A stretch of DNA of 32,036 bases. Origin: a virus. Taxonomy: Duplodnaviria > Caudoviricetes. Each line of letters begins with the position of its first letter. Within the stretch, counting starts at the first letter, position 1. Below are positions 1 to 30,651 of this stretch, piece after piece. Location: positions 1 through 32,036 of the IMG/VR virus record IMGVR_UViG_3300025314_000066, one strand, 5' to 3'. Below the pieces are notes generated by a model. The model was not told where the DNA came from and searched no databases. It worked only from the letters and a program-made list of their open reading frames with translations. The translations under genes and the position numbers were made by a program.

Positions 1-100
1 TGTGCATCGTGTGGTGTGGTGTGGTGGTGGTGTGCCTGTGGGGAGGGGCCTGCCTTACCTACCGGGGTGGATTCGTGCGTGGGTGAGTGTGAATGTATGG
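1..100. repeat. GT-rich low-complexity tract (gtggt/gtg reiterations)
   Basis: tgtggtgtggtgtggtggtggtgtg at about 10-34 and continued G/T skew; no credible ORF. Confidence 0.6.
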
Positions 101-613: not shown

Positions 614-736
614 TGGGGCAGTGGGCGAGGATTTGCACCCCGCATGGTGTGGACATACCGGGTGCGACCCGACCTTCATTGACGTATCTCACCACACCCT
701 TACGGGATTCGCGTCTACCTATTCCGCCACCACTGC
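614..736 (-). ncRNA. Atypical 123-nt tRNA-like RNA (Leu-type D arm, expanded non-canonical centre, encoded CCA)
   Basis: Minus strand: GCAGTGG-TG-GCG GAATAGGTAGA CGC-G-[66 nt]-GCGGGG TGCAAAT CCTCGC-CCACTGC-C-CCA. Perfect 7-bp acceptor stem, D arm, T-type arm and CCA; no canonical anticodon stem. Confidence 0.8.
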
Positions 737-744
737 TGGTTACC

Positions 745-750
745 AGTATA
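745..750 (-). promoter_or_regulatory. Putative -10 box (TATACT) for the tRNA-like RNA
   Basis: TATACT ends 8 nt upstream of G1 of the tRNA-like RNA. Confidence 0.5.
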
Positions 751-756
751 GGGCAC

Positions 757-790
757 AAAAAAGGGAGCCCCGCCAATGAGAGGGCTCCCT
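757..790 (-). terminator. Rho-independent terminator
   Basis: Minus strand: AGGGAGCCC-loop-GGGCTCCCT running into a T6 tract. Confidence 0.85.
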
Positions 791-872
791 GTAAATCAGG
801 ATGGATGGTAGAGGCAAAAGTGCTATGAGATTGACCAGCCATCCTTGCAGTGGCGGAAGGTATAACGCCACA
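757..872 (-). ncRNA. Candidate ~115-nt small RNA
   Basis: Between a perfect extended -10 (878-886) and the terminator. Hairpins GTGGCG/CGCCAC and AGGATGG-C-TGGT/ACCA-T-CCATCCT; no credible ORF. Confidence 0.6.
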
Positions 873-877
873 TACAG

Positions 878-886
878 ATTATAGCA
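878..886 (-). promoter_or_regulatory. Extended -10 promoter TGcTATAAT
   Basis: Perfect TGnTATAAT consensus 3 nt downstream of the stop of the HExxH gene. Confidence 0.75.
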
Positions 887-889
887 CCA

Positions 890-1330
890 CTACGGTGTCG
901 TTTCCCGTTCCAGCCACTCAGCGGGTGTTGGCAGGAGTCGTCCCCAGTCGTAGGCAATGCCGTCGATGCAGTATTCCATTGCCGATGTTGTCGCTGCCCA
1001 CGTTGGCGCAAACATGATGACCCCAATCAGGGATTCAAGTTCAGATAACGGGTCGCGCACCGGCGCAAAGTGGCAGTGGAGGAGTTCGTGGACGCAGATA
1101 TGCCGGAACTTTTCTTCATCCCAGGACGGCCAGTCGGAACGTAGCCGGATGGTGGCTGATTTACGTCCTTCTTCTGGAGTACATGTGCCGCCAACGACTT
1201 CACTGTGTCCTTCGTCTTGTGGCGTTGAATGGCCATGGTACAGGAACCAATCGCGGAGCCCCATTTGGTCGGCAAGGAAACGGAGATAGGGGCCAATATA
1301 GTCACGGTCGCCGTCAAATATCTCACTCAT
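890..1330 (-). CDS. Hypothetical protein with HExxH zinc-metallopeptidase motif
   Basis: ICVHELLHCH motif; start at 1330 preferred because GGAGA precedes ATG (MSEIFDG). Confidence 0.7.
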   Translation of the reverse strand: MSEIFDGDRDYIGPYLRFLADQMGLRDWFLYHGHSTPQDEGHSEVVGGTCTPEEGRKSATIRLRSDWPSWDEEKFRHICVHELLHCHFAPVRDPLSELESLIGVIMFAPTWAATTSAMEYCIDGIAYDWGRLLPTPAEWLERETTP

Positions 1331-1351
1331 GCTGTTCTCCATTGGTAGATA

Positions 1352-1676: not shown

Positions 1677-1975
1677 GGCTTCTTCCCCTTCTTCTTCTCG
1701 TATGCTTCCCGTTCCTCGACCTCTTTGATGACATCGCGCCACTTATCGGTCTCCTTTTCGTAGATTTCCTGGAACGCGGTCGCTTCCGGGTCGTCCTCGG
1801 TGATGATTTCATGGGCGTCGAAGGGGATTTCCACGTCAACACCTGGCATATCCATCATGTACCCGATGTAATCGTGCATCGGGTGACCACATTGCCGCCC
1901 CCTGCCGAGGTCAGGCACCGGATTATGCCCGAAGATGAGCACATGTTCTTTCCGGTAGGCGTCTTTATCGGTCAT
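1673..1975 (-). CDS. Hypothetical phage protein (acidic, Lys-rich tail)
   Basis: ATGA overlap with the upstream gene; realistic composition. Confidence 0.7.
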   Translation of the reverse strand: MTDKDAYRKEHVLIFGHNPVPDLGRGRQCGHPMHDYIGYMMDMPGVDVEIPFDAHEIITEDDPEATAFQEIYEKETDKWRDVIKEVEEREAYEKKKGKKP

Positions 1976-2890: not shown

Positions 2891-3118
2891 ATGAACGCAC
2901 GCGAACAGATAGCAGAAGTTGTATGGGTATCGCAAACCAGTATAGAAGCACCGATAAAAGTCACTGATCGGATTATCGCCATTGTGCGCGAGGCATTGCT
3001 GAGCAAGTCTGCAATAACGCTGGCTGACGATATTGAGTACGAGATTGCAGCGGAGAGAGGTATGTATGAGATGACTTTGCCTACCGTGATAGATCGTGTG
3101 CTCGGTAGCGACCGATGA
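2891..3118 (+). CDS. Hypothetical phage protein (75 aa)
   Basis: AAGGAGG precedes ATG 2891; stop overlaps the terminase start (ATGA). Confidence 0.7.
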   Translation: MNAREQIAEVVWVSQTSIEAPIKVTDRIIAIVREALLSKSAITLADDIEYEIAAERGMYEMTLPTVIDRVLGSDR

Positions 3119-4947
3119 GTAGCGCCATTGCCAAGACAGGCCGGTTCTCCCCTGGTCCCCAATCACCGTTCCTTGTGGAACAGCAAACGATCCCTGCCCT
3201 TGGCGCATTGGTGCCGGAACTGGCGATTGTGCCACAGGACGCCGACGAGTGGAAACTGTGGCGCACACGGGTCAAGGCGTACAGGGAACTGCGTAGGCGG
3301 CAGTGTGAGGACAACCGCAAGGAACAGAAGATCGAAATGGACCGCTGCAAGGATGATCCGGCGTATTGGATCATCATGTACACGGCCATCTTCGAGCCCC
3401 GGAGTATTGATGGCAACCCGCCTGCATGGTATCCGTGGATTCTGTTCCCGTTTCAGGTCGGCATGATCCGCTGGATTCAGGCCACGATGGAGGAGACTGA
3501 AGGCGGACGCGGCGATGGCGTGGTCGAGAAGTCCCGCGATATGGGCGCAAGCTGGATATTCTGCGCGTATATCTCATGGGCATTTCTCTATCAGGATGTG
3601 TTTGTGGCCGGGATTATCAGTCGCAACGCGGACCAGGTGGACAAGACCAACTCATCGGATACCCTGTTCTTCAAGATCAAGGCGCTGCTGGGGCTGGTAC
3701 TGAGTGTGCCTGCCGGGTTGCGTCTGCCCGAATGGATGAAGCCGAAAGGATTGAATAATGATTCCTCTACACTCCGTACAATCGCTCATCCAACAAAACA
3801 ATGCAGCATACTTGGGGAAACCTCCACGTCACTCGCAGGTGTTGGTGGCCGCGCAACTATGCGAGTTAATGATGAGGCAGCTCGGTTTGAGAACTTCGAT
3901 GCAGCGTGGGCAAATCAGGCAGCGACGACAACTCATAGATTTGCGCTTTCCTCTGCCGACCTCAAATCCCCCGGCTTCCGTGAACTTGCCGAACTGGGCC
4001 GTGCGGGACTGGCTAACCCGTATGCGAAAGCCCCCAGTTACCTGAGACTGGACTGGTGGGTGCATCCCTTCCATACCGAGGAGTGGTTCGAGAATGAGAA
4101 AGCCCGGGCAATCAACGACTTGCACTCCTTCGAGCGCGAGTATGAAATCTCTTATGAAGCTGGCCGTGGGGAGGTGGTATACCCACGAATACAGGATGTC
4201 CAACTTGGCCATTACCCATTCGATCCGAACCTCGGAACGTTGTATTGCACCATCGACCCCGGAACAAGTGACCCTGCGGCGATCATCTGGATTCAGGACG
4301 ATCCCAAAGCCAACCGATACCGAATAGTCGATGCCTTCGAGGGCGTCGGTGGTGAGGATACGCACTTCATCGCAAGTGTCCTGACGGGCGTGTATGTCTC
4401 GGGTATCGGCGGCTACAAGTACCATCAGTACCCGGATATTGCCCGGATTATGGACTGGACGGGGAACTTGCAGGTGCCCGTGGTGTACGTGGGCGACCCG
4501 TATGGCAACCACCGTGGCGGTGACGGCAAGAAGTCCTTTTATGAAGGGCTCCGGGACGATAGCGAGAAACTGACCGGCGGTGCCAATGTGATCTATGTGA
4601 AGGCCCCAACCTCGATTGAGGTGCCTGGCATCACCACCAAGGACACACGTAACCATCTCCGGCGCAAGGTGGCGCTGAACAAGATTCTCGGCAAACTGGA
4701 CTTCAACGATACCAAGGGTGCAGCATCCGTGCTGACCGCATTGAAGGAATCCAAGTACCCGGCCCGCAAAGAAGGCCGCACGTATAGCTCGGAAATCCTG
4801 GAGCCTGCCCATGACAAGTACAGCCACCGCAGGACCGCAATGGAGTTCTTCGCGGTGAATGTGGAGCCGTTGCAGGGCTCCGGTGGCGGGATGCAACGTG
4901 CCGTGCCGCCGATCCGCCGAACAATGGGTGGCCGCACGAGAAGGTGA
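3115..4947 (+). CDS. terL: Terminase large subunit
   Basis: Q motif (LFPFQ), Walker A VVEKSRDMGASW, Walker B VNDEAA, nuclease motif TIDPGTSDP, GDP, and PAHDKYSH. Confidence 0.92.
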   Translation: MSSAIAKTGRFSPGPQSPFLVEQQTIPALGALVPELAIVPQDADEWKLWRTRVKAYRELRRRQCEDNRKEQKIEMDRCKDDPAYWIIMYTAIFEPRSIDGNPPAWYPWILFPFQVGMIRWIQATMEETEGGRGDGVVEKSRDMGASWIFCAYISWAFLYQDVFVAGIISRNADQVDKTNSSDTLFFKIKALLGLVLSVPAGLRLPEWMKPKGLNNDSSTLRTIAHPTKQCSILGETSTSLAGVGGRATMRVNDEAARFENFDAAWANQAATTTHRFALSSADLKSPGFRELAELGRAGLANPYAKAPSYLRLDWWVHPFHTEEWFENEKARAINDLHSFEREYEISYEAGRGEVVYPRIQDVQLGHYPFDPNLGTLYCTIDPGTSDPAAIIWIQDDPKANRYRIVDAFEGVGGEDTHFIASVLTGVYVSGIGGYKYHQYPDIARIMDWTGNLQVPVVYVGDPYGNHRGGDGKKSFYEGLRDDSEKLTGGANVIYVKAPTSIEVPGITTKDTRNHLRRKVALNKILGKLDFNDTKGAASVLTALKESKYPARKEGRTYSSEILEPAHDKYSHRRTAMEFFAVNVEPLQGSGGGMQRAVPPIRRTMGGRTRR

Positions 4948-10523: not shown

Positions 10524-13500
10524 ATGGTATCTGATTTCGAGAGATTCCTTGAAGGACTTACATCGTCAATGGGCCTACCGGGTGCGCCCACAGCGCCACC
10601 GCCTATCCGTACCCAACGGCCAGAGCCACTGCCGTATTCCAACGCAACACCACAACAGCAACAGGCCATTCAGCAGGCATCCGCAGGATTGCCGCCCGAC
10701 CTGGTAGCGCAGATCGCGCAACTTGCGGCTGCACCTGCCGCACAGCAGATGCCATCCCCGGCGATCAACCCGAACCTTATGGCATCGACCACAATGCCGA
10801 TGGGCTATCAGCAGCCTGCCCGTGATACTGCCCCGGTGCAAGCGCCGCAACCGAAGCCAACCGATAACCCCTACGCTGCGAAGGATGGCGAGGGCTACGT
10901 GTTTGTGGCCTACGATACCGGCACAGAGGAAGGCGAAGTCACGGTTGCCGTGCCTGAGCGGTATGTGCCAACCCTTCCGGCTGGAACGCGGGTTATCAGT
11001 GAAGTGATCCCGGCATCCCGGCGTGACGATATGGCCGCGAACAACGACTTGCTTGAACAGCAGTCGGATACGGTCAAGAATGGCATTGTCCCGCCGAAGC
11101 AGGTTGCCGTTGCCAAGAATCCTGAAATCCTGGTTGTTGAAGATCGGCAAGGCAATATCTCCACGATCTATGCAACCGAGGAAGTCCCGCAGGGGTCCAA
11201 GGTTATCCGTCGCGGTGGCGGTGAGCAATCCGGGGAGAAAATGGTTGCCACGGGTAGCCCAACCGTCGTCGGTGAAATGACTGATGAACAGGCTGCCGCA
11301 AACCGGGCACAGAACACCGCAACGGTGGACGCCGAGGGCAACATTGTTGAGCCCGATAAGGAAGTGCGGGTACTGTCGATTGCCGAACTACGTGCCATTG
11401 ATACGCCTGAGACAACCGAGATGGCTGACCGGCTGGAGCAGAGCGGGTTGACTGAGTACCGCGATGATACCGCGTATATCCAGGACCCGGAAACCGGGCG
11501 ACTGACGGCAATGCCAATGGACGAATACCTGGCACAGTCAGAGGATGCCAACGCACCGTTGCCTGCGATGACAACCAATATCATCCGTGATGAGCACGGC
11601 ATGCATACGGAAGCGAACGAACTGGAAGCGCAGGGCATCTATGTGATCCCTGACGGCAAGATGGCCGTCAAGCGCAATGGGACGTGGACGATTGTTACCG
11701 CACAAGAGAATCCCGCGAATGTCGATGATGTTGTCTACGGCGGCGTGAGCAAGCCGCTGGAAGATAAGCGCATTATCGGCAGTGGTGGTGACTTTATCGA
11801 GGGCATGAAGGACCTTGGCGGTGGCGTGCTTCCTGCCTTGGCTGCATTGGACAAGCCGCGCCGATGGACCAATGAGCAAATGGGCAGCATCTTGTATGAG
11901 CAGGCGTCCGGCAATGATGTGAACCTCCCCGGATGGGACCCGTTGACCTCATTTGTCCTCGGTGCCCCCGGGTCAGACTTGAAGCCGGGGAAAACAAAAC
12001 TCACGTCGGAGGAAGGTTCGATTGGGGAGTGGGCGAAAGCCAACCCTGATAAGGTGATTGACCTGTATGAGAATGGGTATGACGCGAATGATGATGGGGT
12101 TGTGGACTTCACGGGCGGCGAAGCGGTCTTTGAATACTGGGTAGGCCAACAGAATATGCTCACCCGTGTCGTGGGCGAAATCGCGGGCGATCCACTGAAT
12201 ATCGCTGCCGGTGGTGGTGGCTTGCTCCGACGTGGTGCTACCAAGGTCGCGGGGGAAGCCGCAACAACCAGCATTGGCCGCAACCTGCTTTCTCGCGGCA
12301 TGAATACCACAGGACGGTTGCTGCAACTGCCTGACGAACTGATGGATGCGGCCCTGTCCCGGACGGCGCGGGGTACGTATAACACTCTCACGACAGAGGG
12401 TGTGCGGACAGGGCTTGCCGATAAACTGGCAACTGCCCGCATTACTGGCAAGCTGTTCCGGGACACCGACCAGGTTGCCATGACAAAATCGCAGCAAGAC
12501 GTAGACCGCTCCGTGTCCACCCTTGCTGACCAGCAGGCGCTGACCCGTCCGATGGATAACCCGCCGCCAACGACCGGCACCGTGCCACCTCCAACTGCGC
12601 CTGATGTGCCACCTGCGCCACGAACGCCGGATGCTCCTGCATCGGGGCAACCGCCAACCGTCGTGTCCTCGGTGGATACGCCGCCAATCCCGCGTGAGGT
12701 GATCGAGACATTGCCGCCCGCGCAACGTGCCCTGTATGAGAACTGGGATCAGCAGTCACTTGATATTGGTGGTGAATCCCCGTTCTCGTATCGTGAGGAT
12801 GGGTTGCCGGACGCGCCGAACTGGGGTATTGCGACACCGCGTACCGATGAAGATGGGCGTGCTGTCCTTGAGCTTCTGGAGGAAGATGATTACGCACGCC
12901 GGATTGTGGATGAAACGTATGTTGCAGTTGGCAAGGACCTCCCGGATCGGTGGAAGTTCTTTGCGGACCTGCACGATCCGAAGGCCCGCCGATTCGATGC
13001 CAAGGAAGAGGAACTAAAAGCCCGGAGTATCGGCCAGAAACAAGCCCGTGGCGGGAAGTTTGACTACCCGCACAAGGCGCTGTCTGCGGTCAATGAAGCC
13101 CGGTACATCATTGATGACTTGATCCCTGACTTCAAGCAGGCGTTCCCGGATCGGGAGATTCCCGCGTACCGCTTCAAGAACAAGGCCAAGACCGCAACGC
13201 TGGATAGCACCGAGAACGATGACCTGTTGCTGGAAACCTTCATCTTTGGCGATGCGGATGTATCTGATGCTGCACGCCGGACGTTGGGCACCCGGGCTTT
13301 CAACCGGGAAGATGCCCACCTTGCCGCGCTTATCCGTACAGCAGGCGAGTATCGCACCCGATACCTGGACCGGCTTGCAGGCCGTGTGCCTGAACCGCGT
13401 GCCGCTGCACCGACGCCAACCATTTCGACAGAGCCATTGCCCACCCCGCGTCAGGCTGCCCCGGTAGAGCCGGAAGGCATCATGGATGCCCCGATTGTGG

Positions 13501-16500
13501 AGCCTGAGCCGGTGCGTCGTGGTGTAGGGCAGGAGCAGCAGGGGGACTTGCGCGTTCCGACAGAAAGGGAAACGGCCGAGGCGCGTAAGCAGTGGAACAC
13601 AGAGAACAATCGCCTACGCGCATTAATGAAAGAAAATAATGTTAAGCCGGAGTGGGTGAGCGCCTACGCGCAGCGTAAAGGGCATGCCAGTGCGGCAGGT
13701 CTTACGCTGGATGAGCTCACGTACCTGAAAAACAAGTTGCGGACAGACGCGGCAGGAACGAAGGAAATGCTGGAAGCTTTCTTTGAGGCCAGCGCACCGA
13801 AGGGTGTTGCTGGGATTGAGAGCATGGCCCCTGCCGATATTCGCACCACATGGGGCATGAAGAAACGGGACCTGCAAAAGAATCTCGGTATCGACAAGTC
13901 ACTCCAGCCACGGTCGAAACCGTTTGATGAGGAACATGTGCGCGGCATTGTGGATAACTATGTCGGCGAACGCATGGACCCGATCCTTCTCAAACGCGGC
14001 AAGGATGGCAATGCCTACGTTGTTGCAGGCCACAACCGGCTAGAGGCAGCGCGTCGGCTGAACGTGGATGTGCCAGTCAGATATACGGACGCGAGTGGCG
14101 ATGATCTTCTGCGGCTTTCCCGTGAAACCAACATGCAGAACCTTGGCATGTCGAACGCGAACATCGCGGAGGATGTGCGCCGAATGGTGGACGAGGGAAA
14201 GTCGTTTGAGGAGATTGGCCGTGCGTTGAAATTGTCCCCGGACGGCATTGCCAAAACTCCGGCGACAATGGCTGAACGGTACTACAACTACTCGTTCCTG
14301 AATCCTGACAGCAACCTTGCCCGGTTGACTGACCAGGGCATCTTGCCGATGGAAATCTCCGCCAACGCTGGTCGGGGTATCCGCAATGGTGCGCTGGATC
14401 AGGCAGAGGTTCAGGCACTTGCGTTCCGGGTATCTGATAACCGGCTCAACCCCAAGAAGTTTGATGACATTCTCCGGCGTGCAATCAAGCGTTCCGAGGA
14501 AGGCAAGTCTCAGCAGATGGGCGGCATGTTTGAGGGGATGAATGTCAGTGACAACCTCAAAGCCGCCGAGGATGAAGTGGACGACCTGTGGCGGCAATGG
14601 ACGAAAACCCATGACGATCTTCGCCTTGCCAACGATTCCCCGGTACGGAGCCGCACAGAGATAGCCCGACTGGAAGCAGAACGGGCGCGTCTTGCCGATG
14701 AACTGGACATCCCTGATGCCAAGATAGGGATGCGCAACCCCACGCCGGAAGGGTATCTCAGCCGGGATTACCAGGTTGATGAGGGGGCTGCGGCTGCAAC
14801 TCGTACTGCACCAGAGTTCGATAATTCAGGGCCGCTTGTTGATGAGATGCTAGATGAGGATGGCAACCCCATTATCTCGGCAGCACAACGGATGCGCGAT
14901 AGTGGTGCAAGCCCATTGTTTAGCCAGCGACAAACACCGGAAACCCGGTGGGCACCACGGGCGGTCAACCAGCGTGGGCCAACCACAGCGGCAGTGGCCG
15001 TGTATGGGCACCCGATGGGGCAATGGGAGTTCCCCAGCCTGAACCTTGATAGCATCAGCAGCCGGGTGAACAAGAAGGTTGCCAACCCGTTCTACAAGGG
15101 CGAATCCGAGTTCCTGTCTCCCCGTGCAAATACGCAGCGGCCATCGGCACAATCCCGTGATGCTGATTACTGGGCGGATACATCGCGCGCACCTGAATCG
15201 GAAGTGCGGATTGTCCGTGGGCGCGTCGTTACCGAGAACGATTGGGATGCGCACATCCTCAGCCAGCGGTTTGACGATGGTGAGCAAATCCTGGATCGGT
15301 GGTCACGTCTTGCCGACGAATATGAAGGCCGTGGGTTGACCGCAGAACAGGCCGATGTTCGCGCTGCCGATCAGGTGATGGCGGACTGGGGCGAACAGGT
15401 TATCAAGGATTACGACGCCAAGCACGGCACCTCGTACCATGAAAAGTACGTGGAGGAATACGAGCGCGTCACCACCACCGGCAAGAAAGAGGACCGGCTG
15501 GAAGGAACGCACGCGCAAATCGTGGCAACCCAGCGGGCGATTGGCGGCACCAACAAGGCCACCACGATCTACGATGACTACCTTGGCATCATGCGCGAGA
15601 TGACGCTGTATAACGTGTTGTCTGGCCCGCGCTACATCATGACGCAGTTGATCGGTAACACGATTACCGCGATGATTACCGGGAACTTCGGAATCATCCC
15701 CCGCGCGATTGGTGAGTACAAGTCTTCGTACCAGCAGATGAGCGGTGTCAATAACGACTGGGTGATGAAGATGCTCGGCGGTATTGGCGATGGTGAACTC
15801 TCTGAGCGGACGTTGCGCAAGGGTATCCGTGAACTCGAAGGTGAGCCCCGGATGATCCTGTTCGACGGGACTGACCGGATGATGCGGGAATGGAACATCG
15901 GCACCGAGCGTGGCGACATCTTCAACGTCGTGCGTGATGAGGTCACCGAAGTCGGTGCGCCAACGAAGCTCCACAACCTGCGCCTTGGCAGCATGCAAAT
16001 CGGCAAGCGGGTCGATGGGGTGTTTGCCAACCGCGCGGTGCGTGATATGGCGAACGCATGGGACTTGTCCTACCGCAAGGCGATGTATGGTCACATGCTG
16101 CAACAGAACAATGCCGGTGCCCGGATTCACATGCGCAACCGCATGATGGAAACCATGCCATCGTCCTTGCCCACCAGCGAGTTCAACCGCATGTGGGATG
16201 AGATCCCGGACTTCTTCGGCAGTGATCGTATCCGCCAGGTATTCGGGGAAGTGGATGCGAAGTGGGCTGACCGCATGGCGCGTGACTGGCAGAGCGCGAT
16301 CCGCAAGATGGATATGGATGCCCGTGACAAGACCTACAAACTGTTCTTCTCCGGGTATGAGCGCAACGCGGATAAGGCGCTACGCCGGGTGTTCTTCTTC
16401 CACTACTGGATGAGCCGTGCCACGCCACTGTACACAGAGGCATTGATGCGCAATCCGGGCGTGATGAACGCGTATGTGAAGATGCTGGCTGAAATCAAGG

Positions 16501-18218
16501 AACAGGAGGAGGAAGGGCGGTTCGGCCCTGCGGTCAACGGCTTCCTCAACTTCTTGTCCACCCCGTTCGGGTTCAACATCTTCATCCGGCCTGATGCCTT
16601 CCTGCAAACCGTGTTTGCGCTGGACGACGGTTCGGACTTTGCCCCCGAGGGCGAGACATTCCTGGGGACATTGATGCGCAAGTCGCCATTGATGATTAAC
16701 CCGTTGATTGATTCCGCCGCGAACCTGCTTGGTATTCAGGGGGATACCTTCGCACCGGACCCGCTGATGCTGGGGCAGTGGAGCAACCTTTCCACCAACG
16801 GCACGAACTTCGTGAAGTCTCACATGGGCGATGAGGTAGGCTCCCCGACCCGCAACAGCTATAGCGATCTGTTGGCATGGGTGCGAGAAAAGACCTCCGG
16901 CTATGTCGGGTTGCCAAAGATCGAGATGACGGATTCAACCCAGTATGCCCGACGTGATGTCAACTACTTCATCATGGAAGTGGCTGAGGAACGCGGCCTT
17001 GACCCGATGGGCGTTGAGGCAATGGCGGCAATGGACGATCCCGAGAGTTCGCTGTACAAGGAAGCCTTCAACCGCTACTCCGAGATGAAGTTGTGGGAAC
17101 ACGGGCTACGGTTCTTCCCGATTACGGCCCCGCTGTACCCGAAGGTGCGGCAGGAGCGTGGGGATGAAACCCGCTACATCATCAACAGCGCAGAGCCGGG
17201 AAGCAGTGAGCGCGAGGAAGCCATGAACCAGCGGGCTATCGCGCAAACGTCTGACCCGGAAGCGCGGACGCTTGCCTTGCAGCAAAAGGAATACACATCG
17301 CTTGGCAAGCCGGATGAACGCGATGCGTACAGTACCTACAACGGTATCCAGTACGGCGGCTTGAAGGAGCCGGTGGTGATCGACGGGGTGGCTGTTGACG
17401 ACTGGGTGCTGTTCGGCATGACGGAGGACGAACGCAAAACGGCTGCCGATGCGTGGGCTGAACAAACCGGCAATACTGACAAGGTTGAATCCGTGCGGGA
17501 ACTCCGCAAGGAATACCGCGAATCGCACCCTGAATATGCCGCGTATGTCGATTGGCGCGGGCAGGTATCCGACCACGAAGGTGGAGCGATTGAGTATTGG
17601 GCCGACCTTGCCGAGGGCAACCCCAACGCTGAACGGTATCTCTCCAATGTTGAGGAGGGGGAGCCCGGCGACGTCGAAATGAACCTGACCAGCGTGACTG
17701 CATACATGCAGTACATGGGTATCCGTCCAACCATCTACGACCCCAACCCGATTAGCACCAACAACGGGCAGGGGCAACCCTACAACCCGGCTGGTGCTAG
17801 CGATAGCAATGGGGAATGGGGTAGCGGATCGTCTACCACGATTGAAGAGGACCTGGTTGCATACGACGAGGAGATGACGGCATGGAATGCGAAGTACGGC
17901 GACCTGCGGAACATGACGCCACCGATGCGGGACGCGACGATGCAGATTGCCCGCGATAACGGCGACGAGATGCCATACCTTTCGGCCAAGGCAAAGGACT
18001 ACATGAAGTGGGTAGACGCGCAGACCCCTGGCACCGATACCAGTATCCCCGCGTATGAGAAGTGGAAGGAAGGGCAGGATGCCGACGTAGAGAAGAAGCC
18101 CGGCGATCAGTCCCCCGAGGATAGGGAGAAGGCCAAACGTAAGGAGAGTTCATACGCACCGACTCAACCTCAGTATGCAGGCGGTATCAATGAACTTCTA
18201 TCTCTGTTGCAGTTCTAG
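10524..18218 (+). CDS. Giant (2564 aa) ejection/polyvalent-type protein with internal ParB-like domain
   Basis: LQPR...DPILL...YVVAGHNRLEAARRL at about 13900-14150; helical C-terminal region (LFF...LRRVFFFHYW) resembling podophage large internal proteins. Confidence 0.75.
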   Translation: MVSDFERFLEGLTSSMGLPGAPTAPPPIRTQRPEPLPYSNATPQQQQAIQQASAGLPPDLVAQIAQLAAAPAAQQMPSPAINPNLMASTTMPMGYQQPARDTAPVQAPQPKPTDNPYAAKDGEGYVFVAYDTGTEEGEVTVAVPERYVPTLPAGTRVISEVIPASRRDDMAANNDLLEQQSDTVKNGIVPPKQVAVAKNPEILVVEDRQGNISTIYATEEVPQGSKVIRRGGGEQSGEKMVATGSPTVVGEMTDEQAAANRAQNTATVDAEGNIVEPDKEVRVLSIAELRAIDTPETTEMADRLEQSGLTEYRDDTAYIQDPETGRLTAMPMDEYLAQSEDANAPLPAMTTNIIRDEHGMHTEANELEAQGIYVIPDGKMAVKRNGTWTIVTAQENPANVDDVVYGGVSKPLEDKRIIGSGGDFIEGMKDLGGGVLPALAALDKPRRWTNEQMGSILYEQASGNDVNLPGWDPLTSFVLGAPGSDLKPGKTKLTSEEGSIGEWAKANPDKVIDLYENGYDANDDGVVDFTGGEAVFEYWVGQQNMLTRVVGEIAGDPLNIAAGGGGLLRRGATKVAGEAATTSIGRNLLSRGMNTTGRLLQLPDELMDAALSRTARGTYNTLTTEGVRTGLADKLATARITGKLFRDTDQVAMTKSQQDVDRSVSTLADQQALTRPMDNPPPTTGTVPPPTAPDVPPAPRTPDAPASGQPPTVVSSVDTPPIPREVIETLPPAQRALYENWDQQSLDIGGESPFSYREDGLPDAPNWGIATPRTDEDGRAVLELLEEDDYARRIVDETYVAVGKDLPDRWKFFADLHDPKARRFDAKEEELKARSIGQKQARGGKFDYPHKALSAVNEARYIIDDLIPDFKQAFPDREIPAYRFKNKAKTATLDSTENDDLLLETFIFGDADVSDAARRTLGTRAFNREDAHLAALIRTAGEYRTRYLDRLAGRVPEPRAAAPTPTISTEPLPTPRQAAPVEPEGIMDAPIVEPEPVRRGVGQEQQGDLRVPTERETAEARKQWNTENNRLRALMKENNVKPEWVSAYAQRKGHASAAGLTLDELTYLKNKLRTDAAGTKEMLEAFFEASAPKGVAGIESMAPADIRTTWGMKKRDLQKNLGIDKSLQPRSKPFDEEHVRGIVDNYVGERMDPILLKRGKDGNAYVVAGHNRLEAARRLNVDVPVRYTDASGDDLLRLSRETNMQNLGMSNANIAEDVRRMVDEGKSFEEIGRALKLSPDGIAKTPATMAERYYNYSFLNPDSNLARLTDQGILPMEISANAGRGIRNGALDQAEVQALAFRVSDNRLNPKKFDDILRRAIKRSEEGKSQQMGGMFEGMNVSDNLKAAEDEVDDLWRQWTKTHDDLRLANDSPVRSRTEIARLEAERARLADELDIPDAKIGMRNPTPEGYLSRDYQVDEGAAAATRTAPEFDNSGPLVDEMLDEDGNPIISAAQRMRDSGASPLFSQRQTPETRWAPRAVNQRGPTTAAVAVYGHPMGQWEFPSLNLDSISSRVNKKVANPFYKGESEFLSPRANTQRPSAQSRDADYWADTSRAPESEVRIVRGRVVTENDWDAHILSQRFDDGEQILDRWSRLADEYEGRGLTAEQADVRAADQVMADWGEQVIKDYDAKHGTSYHEKYVEEYERVTTTGKKEDRLEGTHAQIVATQRAIGGTNKATTIYDDYLGIMREMTLYNVLSGPRYIMTQLIGNTITAMITGNFGIIPRAIGEYKSSYQQMSGVNNDWVMKMLGGIGDGELSERTLRKGIRELEGEPRMILFDGTDRMMREWNIGTERGDIFNVVRDEVTEVGAPTKLHNLRLGSMQIGKRVDGVFANRAVRDMANAWDLSYRKAMYGHMLQQNNAGARIHMRNRMMETMPSSLPTSEFNRMWDEIPDFFGSDRIRQVFGEVDAKWADRMARDWQSAIRKMDMDARDKTYKLFFSGYERNADKALRRVFFFHYWMSRATPLYTEALMRNPGVMNAYVKMLAEIKEQEEEGRFGPAVNGFLNFLSTPFGFNIFIRPDAFLQTVFALDDGSDFAPEGETFLGTLMRKSPLMINPLIDSAANLLGIQGDTFAPDPLMLGQWSNLSTNGTNFVKSHMGDEVGSPTRNSYSDLLAWVREKTSGYVGLPKIEMTDSTQYARRDVNYFIMEVAEERGLDPMGVEAMAAMDDPESSLYKEAFNRYSEMKLWEHGLRFFPITAPLYPKVRQERGDETRYIINSAEPGSSEREEAMNQRAIAQTSDPEARTLALQQKEYTSLGKPDERDAYSTYNGIQYGGLKEPVVIDGVAVDDWVLFGMTEDERKTAADAWAEQTGNTDKVESVRELRKEYRESHPEYAAYVDWRGQVSDHEGGAIEYWADLAEGNPNAERYLSNVEEGEPGDVEMNLTSVTAYMQYMGIRPTIYDPNPISTNNGQGQPYNPAGASDSNGEWGSGSSTTIEEDLVAYDEEMTAWNAKYGDLRNMTPPMRDATMQIARDNGDEMPYLSAKAKDYMKWVDAQTPGTDTSIPAYEKWKEGQDADVEKKPGDQSPEDREKAKRKESSYAPTQPQYAGGINELLSLLQF

Positions 18219-19043: not shown

Positions 19044-20273
19044 ATGGCTGTAACCACACTGAGGGCGGCACAAACGTCCTACCCCACCACGTTTGATGGT
19101 GGTACGTCTGACCAGTTCTCCGGCAATGGCCTGGGCATTGGCCCGTTCATGGACGCGATTGAGCGACAGGATACCAAAATCCTGAACTCCATGAAAAAGG
19201 GCAAGGCCGGTAACCAGCGCAAGGAACGAACGGGTATGCACGGGGTAACCCCTCGTGGCTCCAAGGTTGGGTCTGCGGTTCTTGCCGCCGATACCACCGT
19301 GAATCTTCCTGCCGGGCATGGTGTCCGATTTCAGCAGGGCCACGTACTCCAGGTGACCGCCGCTGCCAGTGGAGCAACCGAGATTATGTGGGTCAACGCT
19401 GATCCGGCTACCGGCTCCCTGTCCGTGAAACGGGCGCAGGCTGGCACCACTGCCATTGGCTTCGCTGCCAATGACACGATCCGCATTATCGGTATCGCAA
19501 TGCCACAACTCTCCGATTACCCCCTCGCGCCTGTCTCCCGTGGCCGGATGTTCCACAACTTCTATCAGGAGTTCAGCAAGCATCTGACCATCTCGAACCA
19601 GGCTGATCAGGAACCAAGCATTGAGTTCCCGCAGGGTGGCCTTCTTGCGAAGGACATGGTGAAGCTCGGTAAAGAGTTGAAGATGGACCTTGAACAGGCG
19701 TTCATCAATGGTCGCCGCCAAGAGGGTACTCCTGACCCGAGCAACCCGATTCCGGCCATGACTGGTGGCTTGATCCAGTTCGCGGAACTCTCCGGTAACG
19801 TGTTCAACGTGGGTGGCGCTGCCGTCCTGCTGAGCATCGACGTTATCAATGAGGCGCTGATTACGCTTGACGAGTCGATTGGTGACAATCGCGGGGCCAA
19901 GATGTTGATGAGCCACCGCACCAAGCAAATCTTCAATCGGCTGAAGTACCCATCGGACTACAATCGTGGCACCGATGGCACCAATGTTGACCTGCGCTGG
20001 AACACCGTGGAGACTGACTTCGGGCGACTGGAGTTTGAGTCTGAGTACGGTATCCCGGACGGCCTTATCATCCTGTTCGACCCGAGCGAGATGGAGTACG
20101 CACCATTTGTCGGTGAGGATTGGCACGAGAAGGACGTACCGACCAAGGGTAACTACAAGTGGCGCGGCGTTTCCGGCACCTACACCTTCCGACCAGGTGC
20201 AGTTCCGGGCTATGCGCTCATCAACAACTTCAACACGACCCTGAGTGCATATCCGGCATGGGGCACACCGTAG
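19044..20273 (+). CDS. Major capsid protein (DUF5309/SU10-like)
   Basis: NFYQEFSKHLTIS, ELKMDLEQAFINGRR, MTGGLIQF and VETDFGRL motifs; position after the scaffold. Confidence 0.85.
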   Translation: MAVTTLRAAQTSYPTTFDGGTSDQFSGNGLGIGPFMDAIERQDTKILNSMKKGKAGNQRKERTGMHGVTPRGSKVGSAVLAADTTVNLPAGHGVRFQQGHVLQVTAAASGATEIMWVNADPATGSLSVKRAQAGTTAIGFAANDTIRIIGIAMPQLSDYPLAPVSRGRMFHNFYQEFSKHLTISNQADQEPSIEFPQGGLLAKDMVKLGKELKMDLEQAFINGRRQEGTPDPSNPIPAMTGGLIQFAELSGNVFNVGGAAVLLSIDVINEALITLDESIGDNRGAKMLMSHRTKQIFNRLKYPSDYNRGTDGTNVDLRWNTVETDFGRLEFESEYGIPDGLIILFDPSEMEYAPFVGEDWHEKDVPTKGNYKWRGVSGTYTFRPGAVPGYALINNFNTTLSAYPAWGTP

Positions 20274-29814: not shown

Positions 29815-30651
29815 ATGGCACTTAAGACTTACACATTCGTTGGGTTGGCGAAACCCGTGTACCTGCCAGATGACATCTTGGTAGAAATCAAGATCATCCC
29901 CGCTGGCAACACCAACGTGCGTAGCAATACGAAACGTGCTGCCAGTGATGTGAAGTTTGTCACCCGTCACGAGACAGCGAACTTCAATGCCGGTGCCGAT
30001 GCGGATATGCACTATCGCTACCTGATGAGCAACCCCGATCCAGCAGCGGGATACAACACGGTCAGTGACGACAACAAGGTTATCCAACTCACGCCGTACG
30101 ATGAGGATACCTGGGCTGCGGGCACCTACACGGGGAACCACACCAGCGATCATCACGAATTGTGCGTAGATGCTGGAACGGATCATGCCAAGGCTCGTCG
30201 CATTGCTGCCGCCGTGGATGCCGGGGTGCTTCAATCCCGTGGGCTCACCCCGCAGGCTGGTTTGCTCCAGCATAACTACTGGACGGGCAAGAACTGCCCG
30301 TTGCTGATGAGGGCCAACAATAACGAAATCTGGAACTACTCGTACTACCCGATGGTCAAGAAGTTCCATGCAGACATCGTTGCCCATGTGAGCGGCGGCA
30401 TCGCTCCGACCCCTACCAAGCAGCGGACATTCACCACGCGGTTCGAGTTGTTGCTGCGGACATCGCCGGGTTTCTGGGACTACGCCAACAACAAGAGCAA
30501 CGTCGTTCGCACACTCCCATCTGGCACCAAGGGCACGATTGTATCCGGGCCGAAGGAGGTGGAGGGTATCGCGTGGTATGACATCAGTATCCCCGGTATC
30601 GGGACTGGCTGGGTGCAGGATGAGGTGCTTCACACGTTGACGATTGCGTAG
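29815..30651 (+). CDS. Endolysin: N-acetylmuramoyl-L-alanine amidase (Amidase_2) + SH3-like cell-wall binding domain
   Basis: HETAN, TWAAG...GN, ELC, QHNYWTGKNCP; C-terminal LRTSPG...WYDI...TGWV. Confidence 0.88.
   Translation: MALKTYTFVGLAKPVYLPDDILVEIKIIPAGNTNVRSNTKRAASDVKFVTRHETANFNAGADADMHYRYLMSNPDPAAGYNTVSDDNKVIQLTPYDEDTWAAGTYTGNHTSDHHELCVDAGTDHAKARRIAAAVDAGVLQSRGLTPQAGLLQHNYWTGKNCPLLMRANNNEIWNYSYYPMVKKFHADIVAHVSGGIAPTPTKQRTFTTRFELLLRTSPGFWDYANNKSNVVRTLPSGTKGTIVSGPKEVEGIAWYDISIPGIGTGWVQDEVLHTLTIA

Follow-up and report, generated by a model that had tools for sequence, protein, structure and literature searches.

A tRNA-Leu-derived RNA with a variable centre, encoded by a phage contig, belongs to an apparently uncatalogued phage RNA family

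Results

The 32,036-nt phage contig analyzed here in full (IMG/VR record IMGVR_UViG_3300025314_000066; hereafter the window) carries on its minus strand, at positions 614 to 736, a 123-nt RNA gene that a first-pass annotation, made from the sequence alone, had described as a tRNA scaffold holding a cargo domain. Our analysis shows that this element is a variant of the phage tRNA-like stable RNAs, real and conserved, and places it in an apparently uncatalogued family in which a tRNA-Leu-like shell surrounds a variable centre. The sequences make us highly confident of the anatomy of this family, namely a shell with covarying stems, a free discriminator, a CCA that is generally absent, a variable centre, additional insertion sites, and a location in phages. 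Maturation of its members into stable RNAs appears probable. Our preferred reading, which we put forward tentatively, is that they are nondecoding, tRNA-derived carriers whose folded domain can be exchanged and would tie up a protein of the host, defence being the most plausible setting. The parts of the element are as follows, with the basis of each assignment in parentheses.

614-736, minus strand: tRNA-Leu-derived noncoding RNA gene, 123 nt, with a 7/6 shell (7-bp acceptor stem, 6-bp T stem), a 66-nt centre, and G55 (sequence and folds)
730-736, minus strand: acceptor stem, 5′ strand (sequence and fold)
711-727, minus strand: Leu-type D arm with G10-C25, C11-G24, G12-C23, and G13·A22, and with A14, A15, G18, and G19 (sequence; compensatory changes in 88 T-arm-anchored relatives)
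699-710, minus strand: 12-nt linker in place of the anticodon arm, part of which has the 5′ strand of the T stem as an alternative partner (sequence and folds)
646-698, minus strand: long arm at the variable-arm position, with closing stem, 4-bp helix, bulge, and apical hairpin (fold; likeness to Lactobacillaceae-prophage centres)
698-692 with 652-646, minus strand: closing stem GGTGTGG/CCACACC, 7 bp (pair probability 0.81-0.95)
687-684 with 658-655, minus strand: helix ATAC/GTAT, 4 bp (fold)
657-673, minus strand: apical hairpin with a 5-bp stem and a 7-nt loop; the hairpin CGGGT-CGC-ACCCG of the first-pass annotation lies at 671-659 (stem covaries in the subfamily)
644-645, minus strand: A47-U48 junction (T at position 48 in 69 of 69 D-arm-anchored members)
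625-643, minus strand: T arm with a 6-bp stem and a TGCAAAT loop containing G55 (sequence and family alignment)
614-624, minus strand: acceptor 3′ strand (624-618), discriminator C (617), and encoded CCA (616-614) (sequence)

Every feature that the first-pass annotation had read from the letters is present. All seven acceptor pairs between 736-730 and 624-618 are Watson-Crick, C73 and the CCA are in the sequence, the D arm at 727-711 is of the Leu type, and the T arm at 643-625 has six pairs, one of them G·U. Positions 33 to 36 read G-TAA with no anticodon stem around them, and the two central helices and the apical hairpin can all be drawn as described. The interpretation needs some amendment. 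A long stem closing on A47-U48 occupies the variable-arm position, and the anticodon arm has given way to a short linker. The “intact elbow” does not hold, because the G at position 55 makes a G18:U55 contact impossible and the elbow is therefore noncanonical; relatives also have long inserts between G18 and G19 or between G55 and C56. Nor do C73 and the encoded CCA appear to be meaningful features, since among 69 relatives the CCA is encoded in 2 and the discriminator is free (A in 38, T in 16, G in 8, and C in 7). A Levitt pair of the Leu type, A15-U48, is predicted for U48.

A family defined by a 7/6 helix and G55

A first search pattern (Leu-type D arm, 50-80-nt gap, T loop), run on 6 of the 64 parts of IMG/VR, returned 120 stretches, 109 of them distinct, from which ~1,600 are estimated for the whole collection. 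The pattern set falls into two classes, TT (TTC loop) and TG (TGC loop), and the window's copy is in the latter. The TT class has long centres, a 7/5 branch in 58 of 64 members, and A73 in 46 of 56 well-paired members; it retains the Leu identity elements and may be open to charging, and ARAGORN often miscalls it as an intron-containing tRNA. Among the 130 distinct cores of the TG class, the T stem has 6 bp in 128 and the acceptor is paired at all seven positions in 106, with many pair types. Counts given below for 121 members refer to this set after removal of nine poorly paired or 5-bp rows.

Two half-anchored samples, one selected by the D arm only and the other by the T arm only, were drawn against circularity. 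The first (~1,600 stretches estimated, 111 distinct hits examined) closes with a 6-bp TGC arm in the 69 members already mentioned, with a 6-bp TTC arm in 2, and with an ordinary 5-bp arm in 9, of which 8 are of normal tRNA length; 31 are unclosed by the closing rule used, and many of these are loop variants or insert carriers. Centre length among the D-arm-anchored members ranges from 8 to 199 nt. In the T-arm sample (~970 estimated), an acceptor partner was found for 98 of 114 hits, and the D stem covaries in the 88 members with a plain D loop, where C11-G24 (73) is replaced by U-A (13) and G10-C25 (72) by A-U (3) or C-G (3). Acceptor, D, and T stems covary in the family, and its size is estimated at roughly a thousand or more IMG/VR stretches, counted as stretches and not as species. 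The window's element (L044) has every feature of the family: the Leu-type D arm, U48, the 6-bp T stem with TGCAAAT, the 7-bp acceptor, and the variable centre.

Searches of GTDB returned 84 stretches, of which ~67 of the 80 with listed titles are from Bacillota, judging by those titles. Unannotated members are also present in cultured phages, with gaps between the two motifs of 60 nt in phiJL-1, 86 in phi3T, 89 in BUCT082, 141 in B025, and 168 in LP65. The match to a known Rfam family that would have refuted the first-pass annotation was not seen: neither ARAGORN nor Rfam makes a call over the element in the window, and no Rfam family covers a member in the 75 relatives' loci scanned. No description of the family was found in the full texts and surveys searched, which do not include subscription journals or the older T4 and T5 papers. 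Motif searches of three supplements of PMC6784885 and six of PMC10690425 gave no match; files 1, 2, and 4 of the latter lie outside this search and may hold a candidate motif for the family.

These data bear on the possibility that the element is a decayed tRNA-Leu pseudogene or an integration remnant, for which the missing anticodon arm and a competing fold in the window's copy might be cited. Homologous loci from related phages, whose collection had been proposed as a check, show compensatory changes in the shell stems and in the centre stems of one subfamily, and both halves of the shell are kept in this manner across hundreds of loci at a fixed, noncanonical 7/6 geometry. This contradicts decay for the family, in agreement with the first-pass annotation; for the window's copy, decay is judged very unlikely.

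The fold of the single copy is less telling. Its energy is modest (z −1.8; 9 of 200 shuffles fold equally well); what sets the element apart from chance is the recurrence of its shell, with compensatory changes, at hundreds of loci in phages. In the computed minimum-energy structure, the 5′ strand of the T stem is taken up by the linker, and the tRNA-like fold is less stable by 6.4 kcal/mol, a gap that is the joint largest among the 121 members (one other is equal; median 2.4) and that leaves out tertiary contacts. The T stem has a probability above 0.5 in 94 of the 121.

Exchangeable centres and loop inserts

Identical shells surround unrelated centres in L002, L004, L010, and L015; L413, L392, and L305 again combine the same shell with unrelated centres, and phi3T and BUCT082 do so with matching flanks as well. 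Conversely, one centre type is found in different shells in L010 and L036, and another, at ~81% identity, in phi3T and the lytic phage Goe3. The 121 centres form 89 clusters. Nine centres (L040, L053, L086, L192, L194, L329, L336, L385, and L531) contain a second T-loop-like hairpin, as in T5 RNA2.

Two further sites in the shell accept insertions. Between G55 and C56, 11 of 72 members have a T-loop insert, one of 1 nt and ten of 27-71 nt, with a basal stem that is common to six and covaries in L560; between G18 and G19, 8 of 95 have a D-loop insert of 65-118 nt. The window's copy has neither. Because the elbow is where such inserts stick out, selection is unlikely to act on a free canonical elbow. 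The T-loop inserts of L330, L337, L360, L372, L375, L414, L560, and L614 have in common a conserved, covarying basal stem and an internal loop, which may together form a separate motif.

That shells otherwise alike differ by an insert at precisely one site (a 47-nt T-loop insert in L305, none in L413 and L392) is what would be expected if the family consisted of intron-containing tRNA precursors from which the inserts are cut out, and introns in phage tRNAs are reported for Lak phages in the portion of PMC6784885 consulted. We consider this explanation remote. No single deletion rebuilds an anticodon arm in the window's copy (0 solutions), so that the spliced intron named in the first pass as a refutation finds no support, and removal of a single segment restores a cloverleaf in 3 of the 121 members versus 1.2 in shuffles. 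The ligase RtcB was not found in the window phage. One study provided three RNA-library runs with contigs that span the gene of the relative L256 and keep its centre intact; as contigs, they are no proof of transcription. A joint that skips the centre of L256 occurs in one metatranscriptome and in one run of unrecorded type, and has two other borders with unknown letters between them; such varied borders are as expected from paralogues with other centres.

The window's centre and its subfamily

An arm closing on A47-U48 is predicted in 45 of the 121 members versus 20 in shuffles. The best relatives of the window's centre are those of Lactobacillaceae prophages, with a global score of 37 that none of 300 family-wise shuffles reached; beyond this subfamily and the same phage, no intermediate relatives were found in IMG/VR and the metagenomes searched. 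In an alignment of 11 sequences (10 hand-picked members and the window), double changes occur at 3 of 5 pairs of the closing stem and 4 of 7 pairs of the apical hairpin; the closing stem of the window's copy is in a different register from that of the subfamily. The proposal of a scaffold with a cargo domain is supported by identical shells with unrelated centres and by centre stems that covary in the subfamily; a decoy or regulatory function for it is a hypothesis. In the same alignment, the apical loop may pair back on 692-689 to form a 4-bp pseudoknot; 43 of 44 cells are paired and the one double change is the window's own, which is suggestive within the subfamily. Such a linker-to-loop pseudoknot does not extend to the family as a whole: at a length of at least 5 bp it occurs in 18 of 146 clusters, versus 13.8, and was rejected as a general rule.

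An anticodon-like hairpin at the tip of the arm is not defining: it is seen in 16 of the 121 members versus 4.5 in base shuffles, 5 of the 16 come from one subfamily, and 105 members are without it. In several Lactobacillaceae prophages, a tRNA look-alike of ~58 nt without an anticodon arm lies just upstream of the member (L256, ~1688-1746, minus strand; L004, 1740-1797; L193, 3245-3302; L221, 2866-2925).

Highly variable, exchanged centres on the scaffold of a stable RNA could also be antisense guides against phage or host RNA. This seems very unlikely, as in the 38.9 kb of its own phage that were compared the window's centre matches over 11 nt at most (10.9 for shuffles), and most of the centre is self-paired.

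Predicted charging

The first-pass annotation had argued from C73 that the RNA is not leucylated, and we predict the same on two counts, since C73 and the loss of G18:U55 each impair leucylation according to passages of PMC9976931. In these passages, Escherichia coli LeuRS can do without both the anticodon arm and the variable arm of its substrate, whereas C73 and broken D/T contacts are not tolerated; A15-U48 has an identity role in tRNA-Leu. As described in part of PMC7826273, TGC in the T loop marks the nonproteogenic tRNA-Gly of staphylococci and is linked to exclusion from translation.

Genomic setting

Upstream of the RNA gene, three further features can be recognized.

745-750, minus strand: TATACT, a −10-like box without a good −35 (consensus match only; missed by the promoter scan)
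757-789, minus strand: intrinsic-terminator-like hairpin and six T, between the RNA gene and upstream transcription (sequence and folds; loop too long for the terminator scan)
846-874, minus strand: stretch antisense to the 5′ shell (acceptor strand and D arm), with an extended −10 just ahead of it at 886-878 (duplex energy; suggestive)

The TATACT box at 750-745, noted in the first pass, lies 8 nt ahead of G1. The late genes are on the other strand, and the RNA gene points away from the terminase; it is placed between the terminator-like hairpin and a long noncoding stretch, with no confident gene within ~900 nt downstream. The hairpin at 789-757, the TATACT box, and the encoded CCA would together fit a stand-alone, nearly leaderless transcript, and placement on the opposite strand after a terminator favours action in trans.

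In the family at large, the 89 members with 1-kb flanks have neighbours on the member's own strand in 72 and 65 cases, and a tRNA within 1 kb in 25, always on the same strand. Among the first 75 of these, the nearest upstream open reading frame (ORF) matches transcription-activator PHROGs 36/248, which we take to be of the ArpU/RinA type, in 17, and the downstream ORF is HNH or terminase in 10; one record of the upstream activator ORF names DUF1492. This arrangement, together with the lack of CCA in most members, would suit a cis-acting processing or leader element, a tRNA-like fold cut by host RNase P and RNase Z to process or stabilize a long late transcript. The orientation of the window's copy, its terminator, its encoded CCA, and the want of a confident gene behind it speak against this, and a cut signal needs no large conserved centre; we regard a cis role as unlikely.

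The stretch at 874-846 pairs with the 5′ shell at −33.6 kcal/mol, the strongest value of 182 members, and ranks 7th of 7,744 phage windows, so that the probability of its lying this near is ~0.02-0.03; it pairs equally well with ordinary Leu D arms. The region 752-886 (minus strand), with the extended −10, the antisense stretch, and the terminator in that order, might give rise to an antisense RNA of 120 nt or to a read-through leader, a suggestion of modest significance. At 537-610, immediately behind the RNA gene, are three tandem operator-like boxes of the TGTGA-N6-TCACA type, found nowhere else in the window and resembling CRP sites. On the plus strand, a weak match to a promoter at 575-604 is directed into the RNA gene.

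No partner protein recurs beside the members; of five genomes examined, Ro60 (TROVE) and DUF3800 were found in none and RtcB in one. Other small RNAs do occur nearby. In SPbeta-like phages, a skipping-rope-like RNA (L619-L621) alternates with a family member (L300, L302) in one slot; this slot is behind yonN, and the skipping-rope-like RNA is its occupant in SPbeta, SPR, and Goe14 (with an annotation in Goe14; score under the cut-off, at 31.3 bits). Identity of the family with skipping-rope, hinted at by a GenBank label, is ruled out, as this is a different RNA. In phi3T and BUCT082, DUF3800-VIII RNAs lie ~1.2 kb beyond the slot, and a DUF3800 gene was not found in phi3T. In L022, a drum RNA (2222-2327) lies ~120 nt downstream of the member, and the same phage encodes RtcB.

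The window itself encodes a terminase large subunit (3115-4947), an SU10-type capsid protein (19044-20273), and an amidase endolysin (29815-30651), and it is the same phage as a 49,539-bp IMG/VR record that is rated complete. Across that record there is no RF00005 match, and hence no tRNA gene, and one D-arm match, so that the element is single copy and the sole tRNA-shaped gene of the phage. Relatives of capsid and endolysin are distant and mostly from Gram-positive phages; the nearest cultured relatives of the endolysin are mostly Bacillus phages, at ~30-39% identity, which suggests a host of the Gram-positive type. Upstream of the RNA gene, a 150-aa ORF (890-1342, minus strand) has an HExxH-like motif by eye and no Pfam or PHROG match. 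GT/G-rich simple repeats occur in the noncoding stretch to the left of the RNA gene (window 1-60; L122 6870-6930), possibly near a packaging or replication site. In the virion module, a 2,564-aa ORF (10524-18218, plus strand) matches no family apart from a ParB-like stretch (residues 1119-1245).

Discussion

In the mechanism that we propose, the RNA would be transcribed from the TATACT box, almost without a leader in the window's copy, or form part of late transcripts in the relatives; its ends would be matured by host RNase P together with RNase Z or exonucleases, and host tRNA-processing enzymes would stabilize it. The resulting RNA would be uncharged and excluded from translation, and its core would present an exchangeable folded domain that binds and sequesters a host protein. 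The weakest step is the target, which may be a host defence or tRNA-handling protein that phages would change by trading centres. Septu and retron-Eco7 cut the variable arm of a class II tRNA, and a decoy role has been proposed for phage tRNA, as set out in part of PMC13096335. In a bolder form, which we consider rather unlikely, the members would make up a class of phage RNA in its own right. Their modular tRNA scaffold would offer independent docking sites in the D loop, the anticodon/variable region, and the T loop, and the structured effector cassettes plugged into these three sites would be traded between temperate and lytic phages for RNA-based counter-defence or host takeover.

Several observations weigh against a carrier of folded domains. 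The member L371 has a centre of just 8 nt, which makes the cargo dispensable; centres are weakly structured overall (mean z −0.6); and their exchange might simply follow from recombination at the D and T motifs, which are conserved on either side. The competing fold in the window's copy removes the T stem, no partner protein recurs beside family members, the RNA-library contigs of the relative show presence only, and the invariance of the shell is partly circular in the pattern-picked sets. Some of these points would be accommodated if the core itself were active, an uncharged tRNA look-alike soaking up enzymes that read the D stem and the acceptor/T helix, such as defence nucleases, tRNA-modifying toxins, or processing enzymes, with the centre as tolerated filler that must fold. 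The existence of cargo-free 8-nt and of 23-nt centres, the weak structure of centres, and the anticodon-less look-alikes upstream of members in Lactobacillaceae prophages are in line with such a core decoy. Long inserts at the elbow would, however, make a poor mimic, and centres are kept at ~81% between SPbeta-like and Herelleviridae phages and covary, so that we judge this alternative unlikely and retain the carrier with exchangeable domains as the preferred reading.

Among known systems, the closest is T5 RNA1 (AY543070, 30501-30644, “tRNA-like stable RNA with unknown functions”), likewise phage-borne, with a Leu-type D arm, a long centre for the anticodon arm, and a T arm and acceptor. It differs in its 5-bp T stem with a TTC loop, and resembles the TT class (7/5, mostly A73) and not the window's element. 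T4 rnaC and rnaD and T5 RNA2 are also stable phage RNAs in tRNA clusters, and rnaC and RNA2 end in a T arm, but they lack the Leu-type D arm and have a 5-bp T stem with TTCGAAT. Bacterial tRNA-Leu shares U8, A14, A15-U48, G18G19, G13·A22, and two unpaired bases before the T stem, whereas the element lacks an anticodon arm (5-bp stem, 7-nt loop), has C73 in place of A73 (free in the family) and G55, and has an acceptor/T helix of 13 bp instead of 12. The staphylococcal tRNA-Gly has the TGC triplet in its T loop, but in the part of PMC7826273 consulted these tRNAs are of class I, have anticodons, and are charged for use by Fem transferases. tRNA-Sec and the allo-tRNAs also have branches other than 7/5 (13 bp in tRNA-Sec) and a long variable arm; theirs are 8/5, 9/4, 8/4, or 9/3, with an anticodon arm, and a 7/6 branch was not found in the available passages of PMC5389517 and PMC7609411.

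The tRNA-like domain of tmRNA, and YrlA as described in sections of PMC4201824, similarly join the top half of a tRNA to a non-tRNA domain. In contrast to tmRNA, the element has A3-U70 instead of G3·U70, a true D stem, and no tmRNA call by ARAGORN or Rfam; in contrast to YrlA, its acceptor end is open and not closed by a loop, and Ro60 is absent from the five genomes. The skipping-rope, drum, and DUF3800 motifs, in the extracts of PMC5737381 consulted, are likewise small phage-associated noncoding RNAs of unknown function, but they are unrelated in sequence and fold.

Annotations of the tRNA-like stable RNAs in T4 and T5 still list the function as unknown, and a similar design can now be placed in an abundant family. 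This family has a sharp signature, the 7/6 helix and G55, that ARAGORN and Rfam miss, and its acceptor branch and long elbow inserts fall outside the tRNA variants described in the consulted parts of the reviews. Bacillus subtilis offers a natural comparison, as phi3T and BUCT082 carry the family and SPbeta has another noncoding RNA in the slot. The use of tRNA as a scaffold is an established laboratory trick. If the centres are effectors, phages would have their own version of it, and with it a new RNA route to the manipulation of their hosts.
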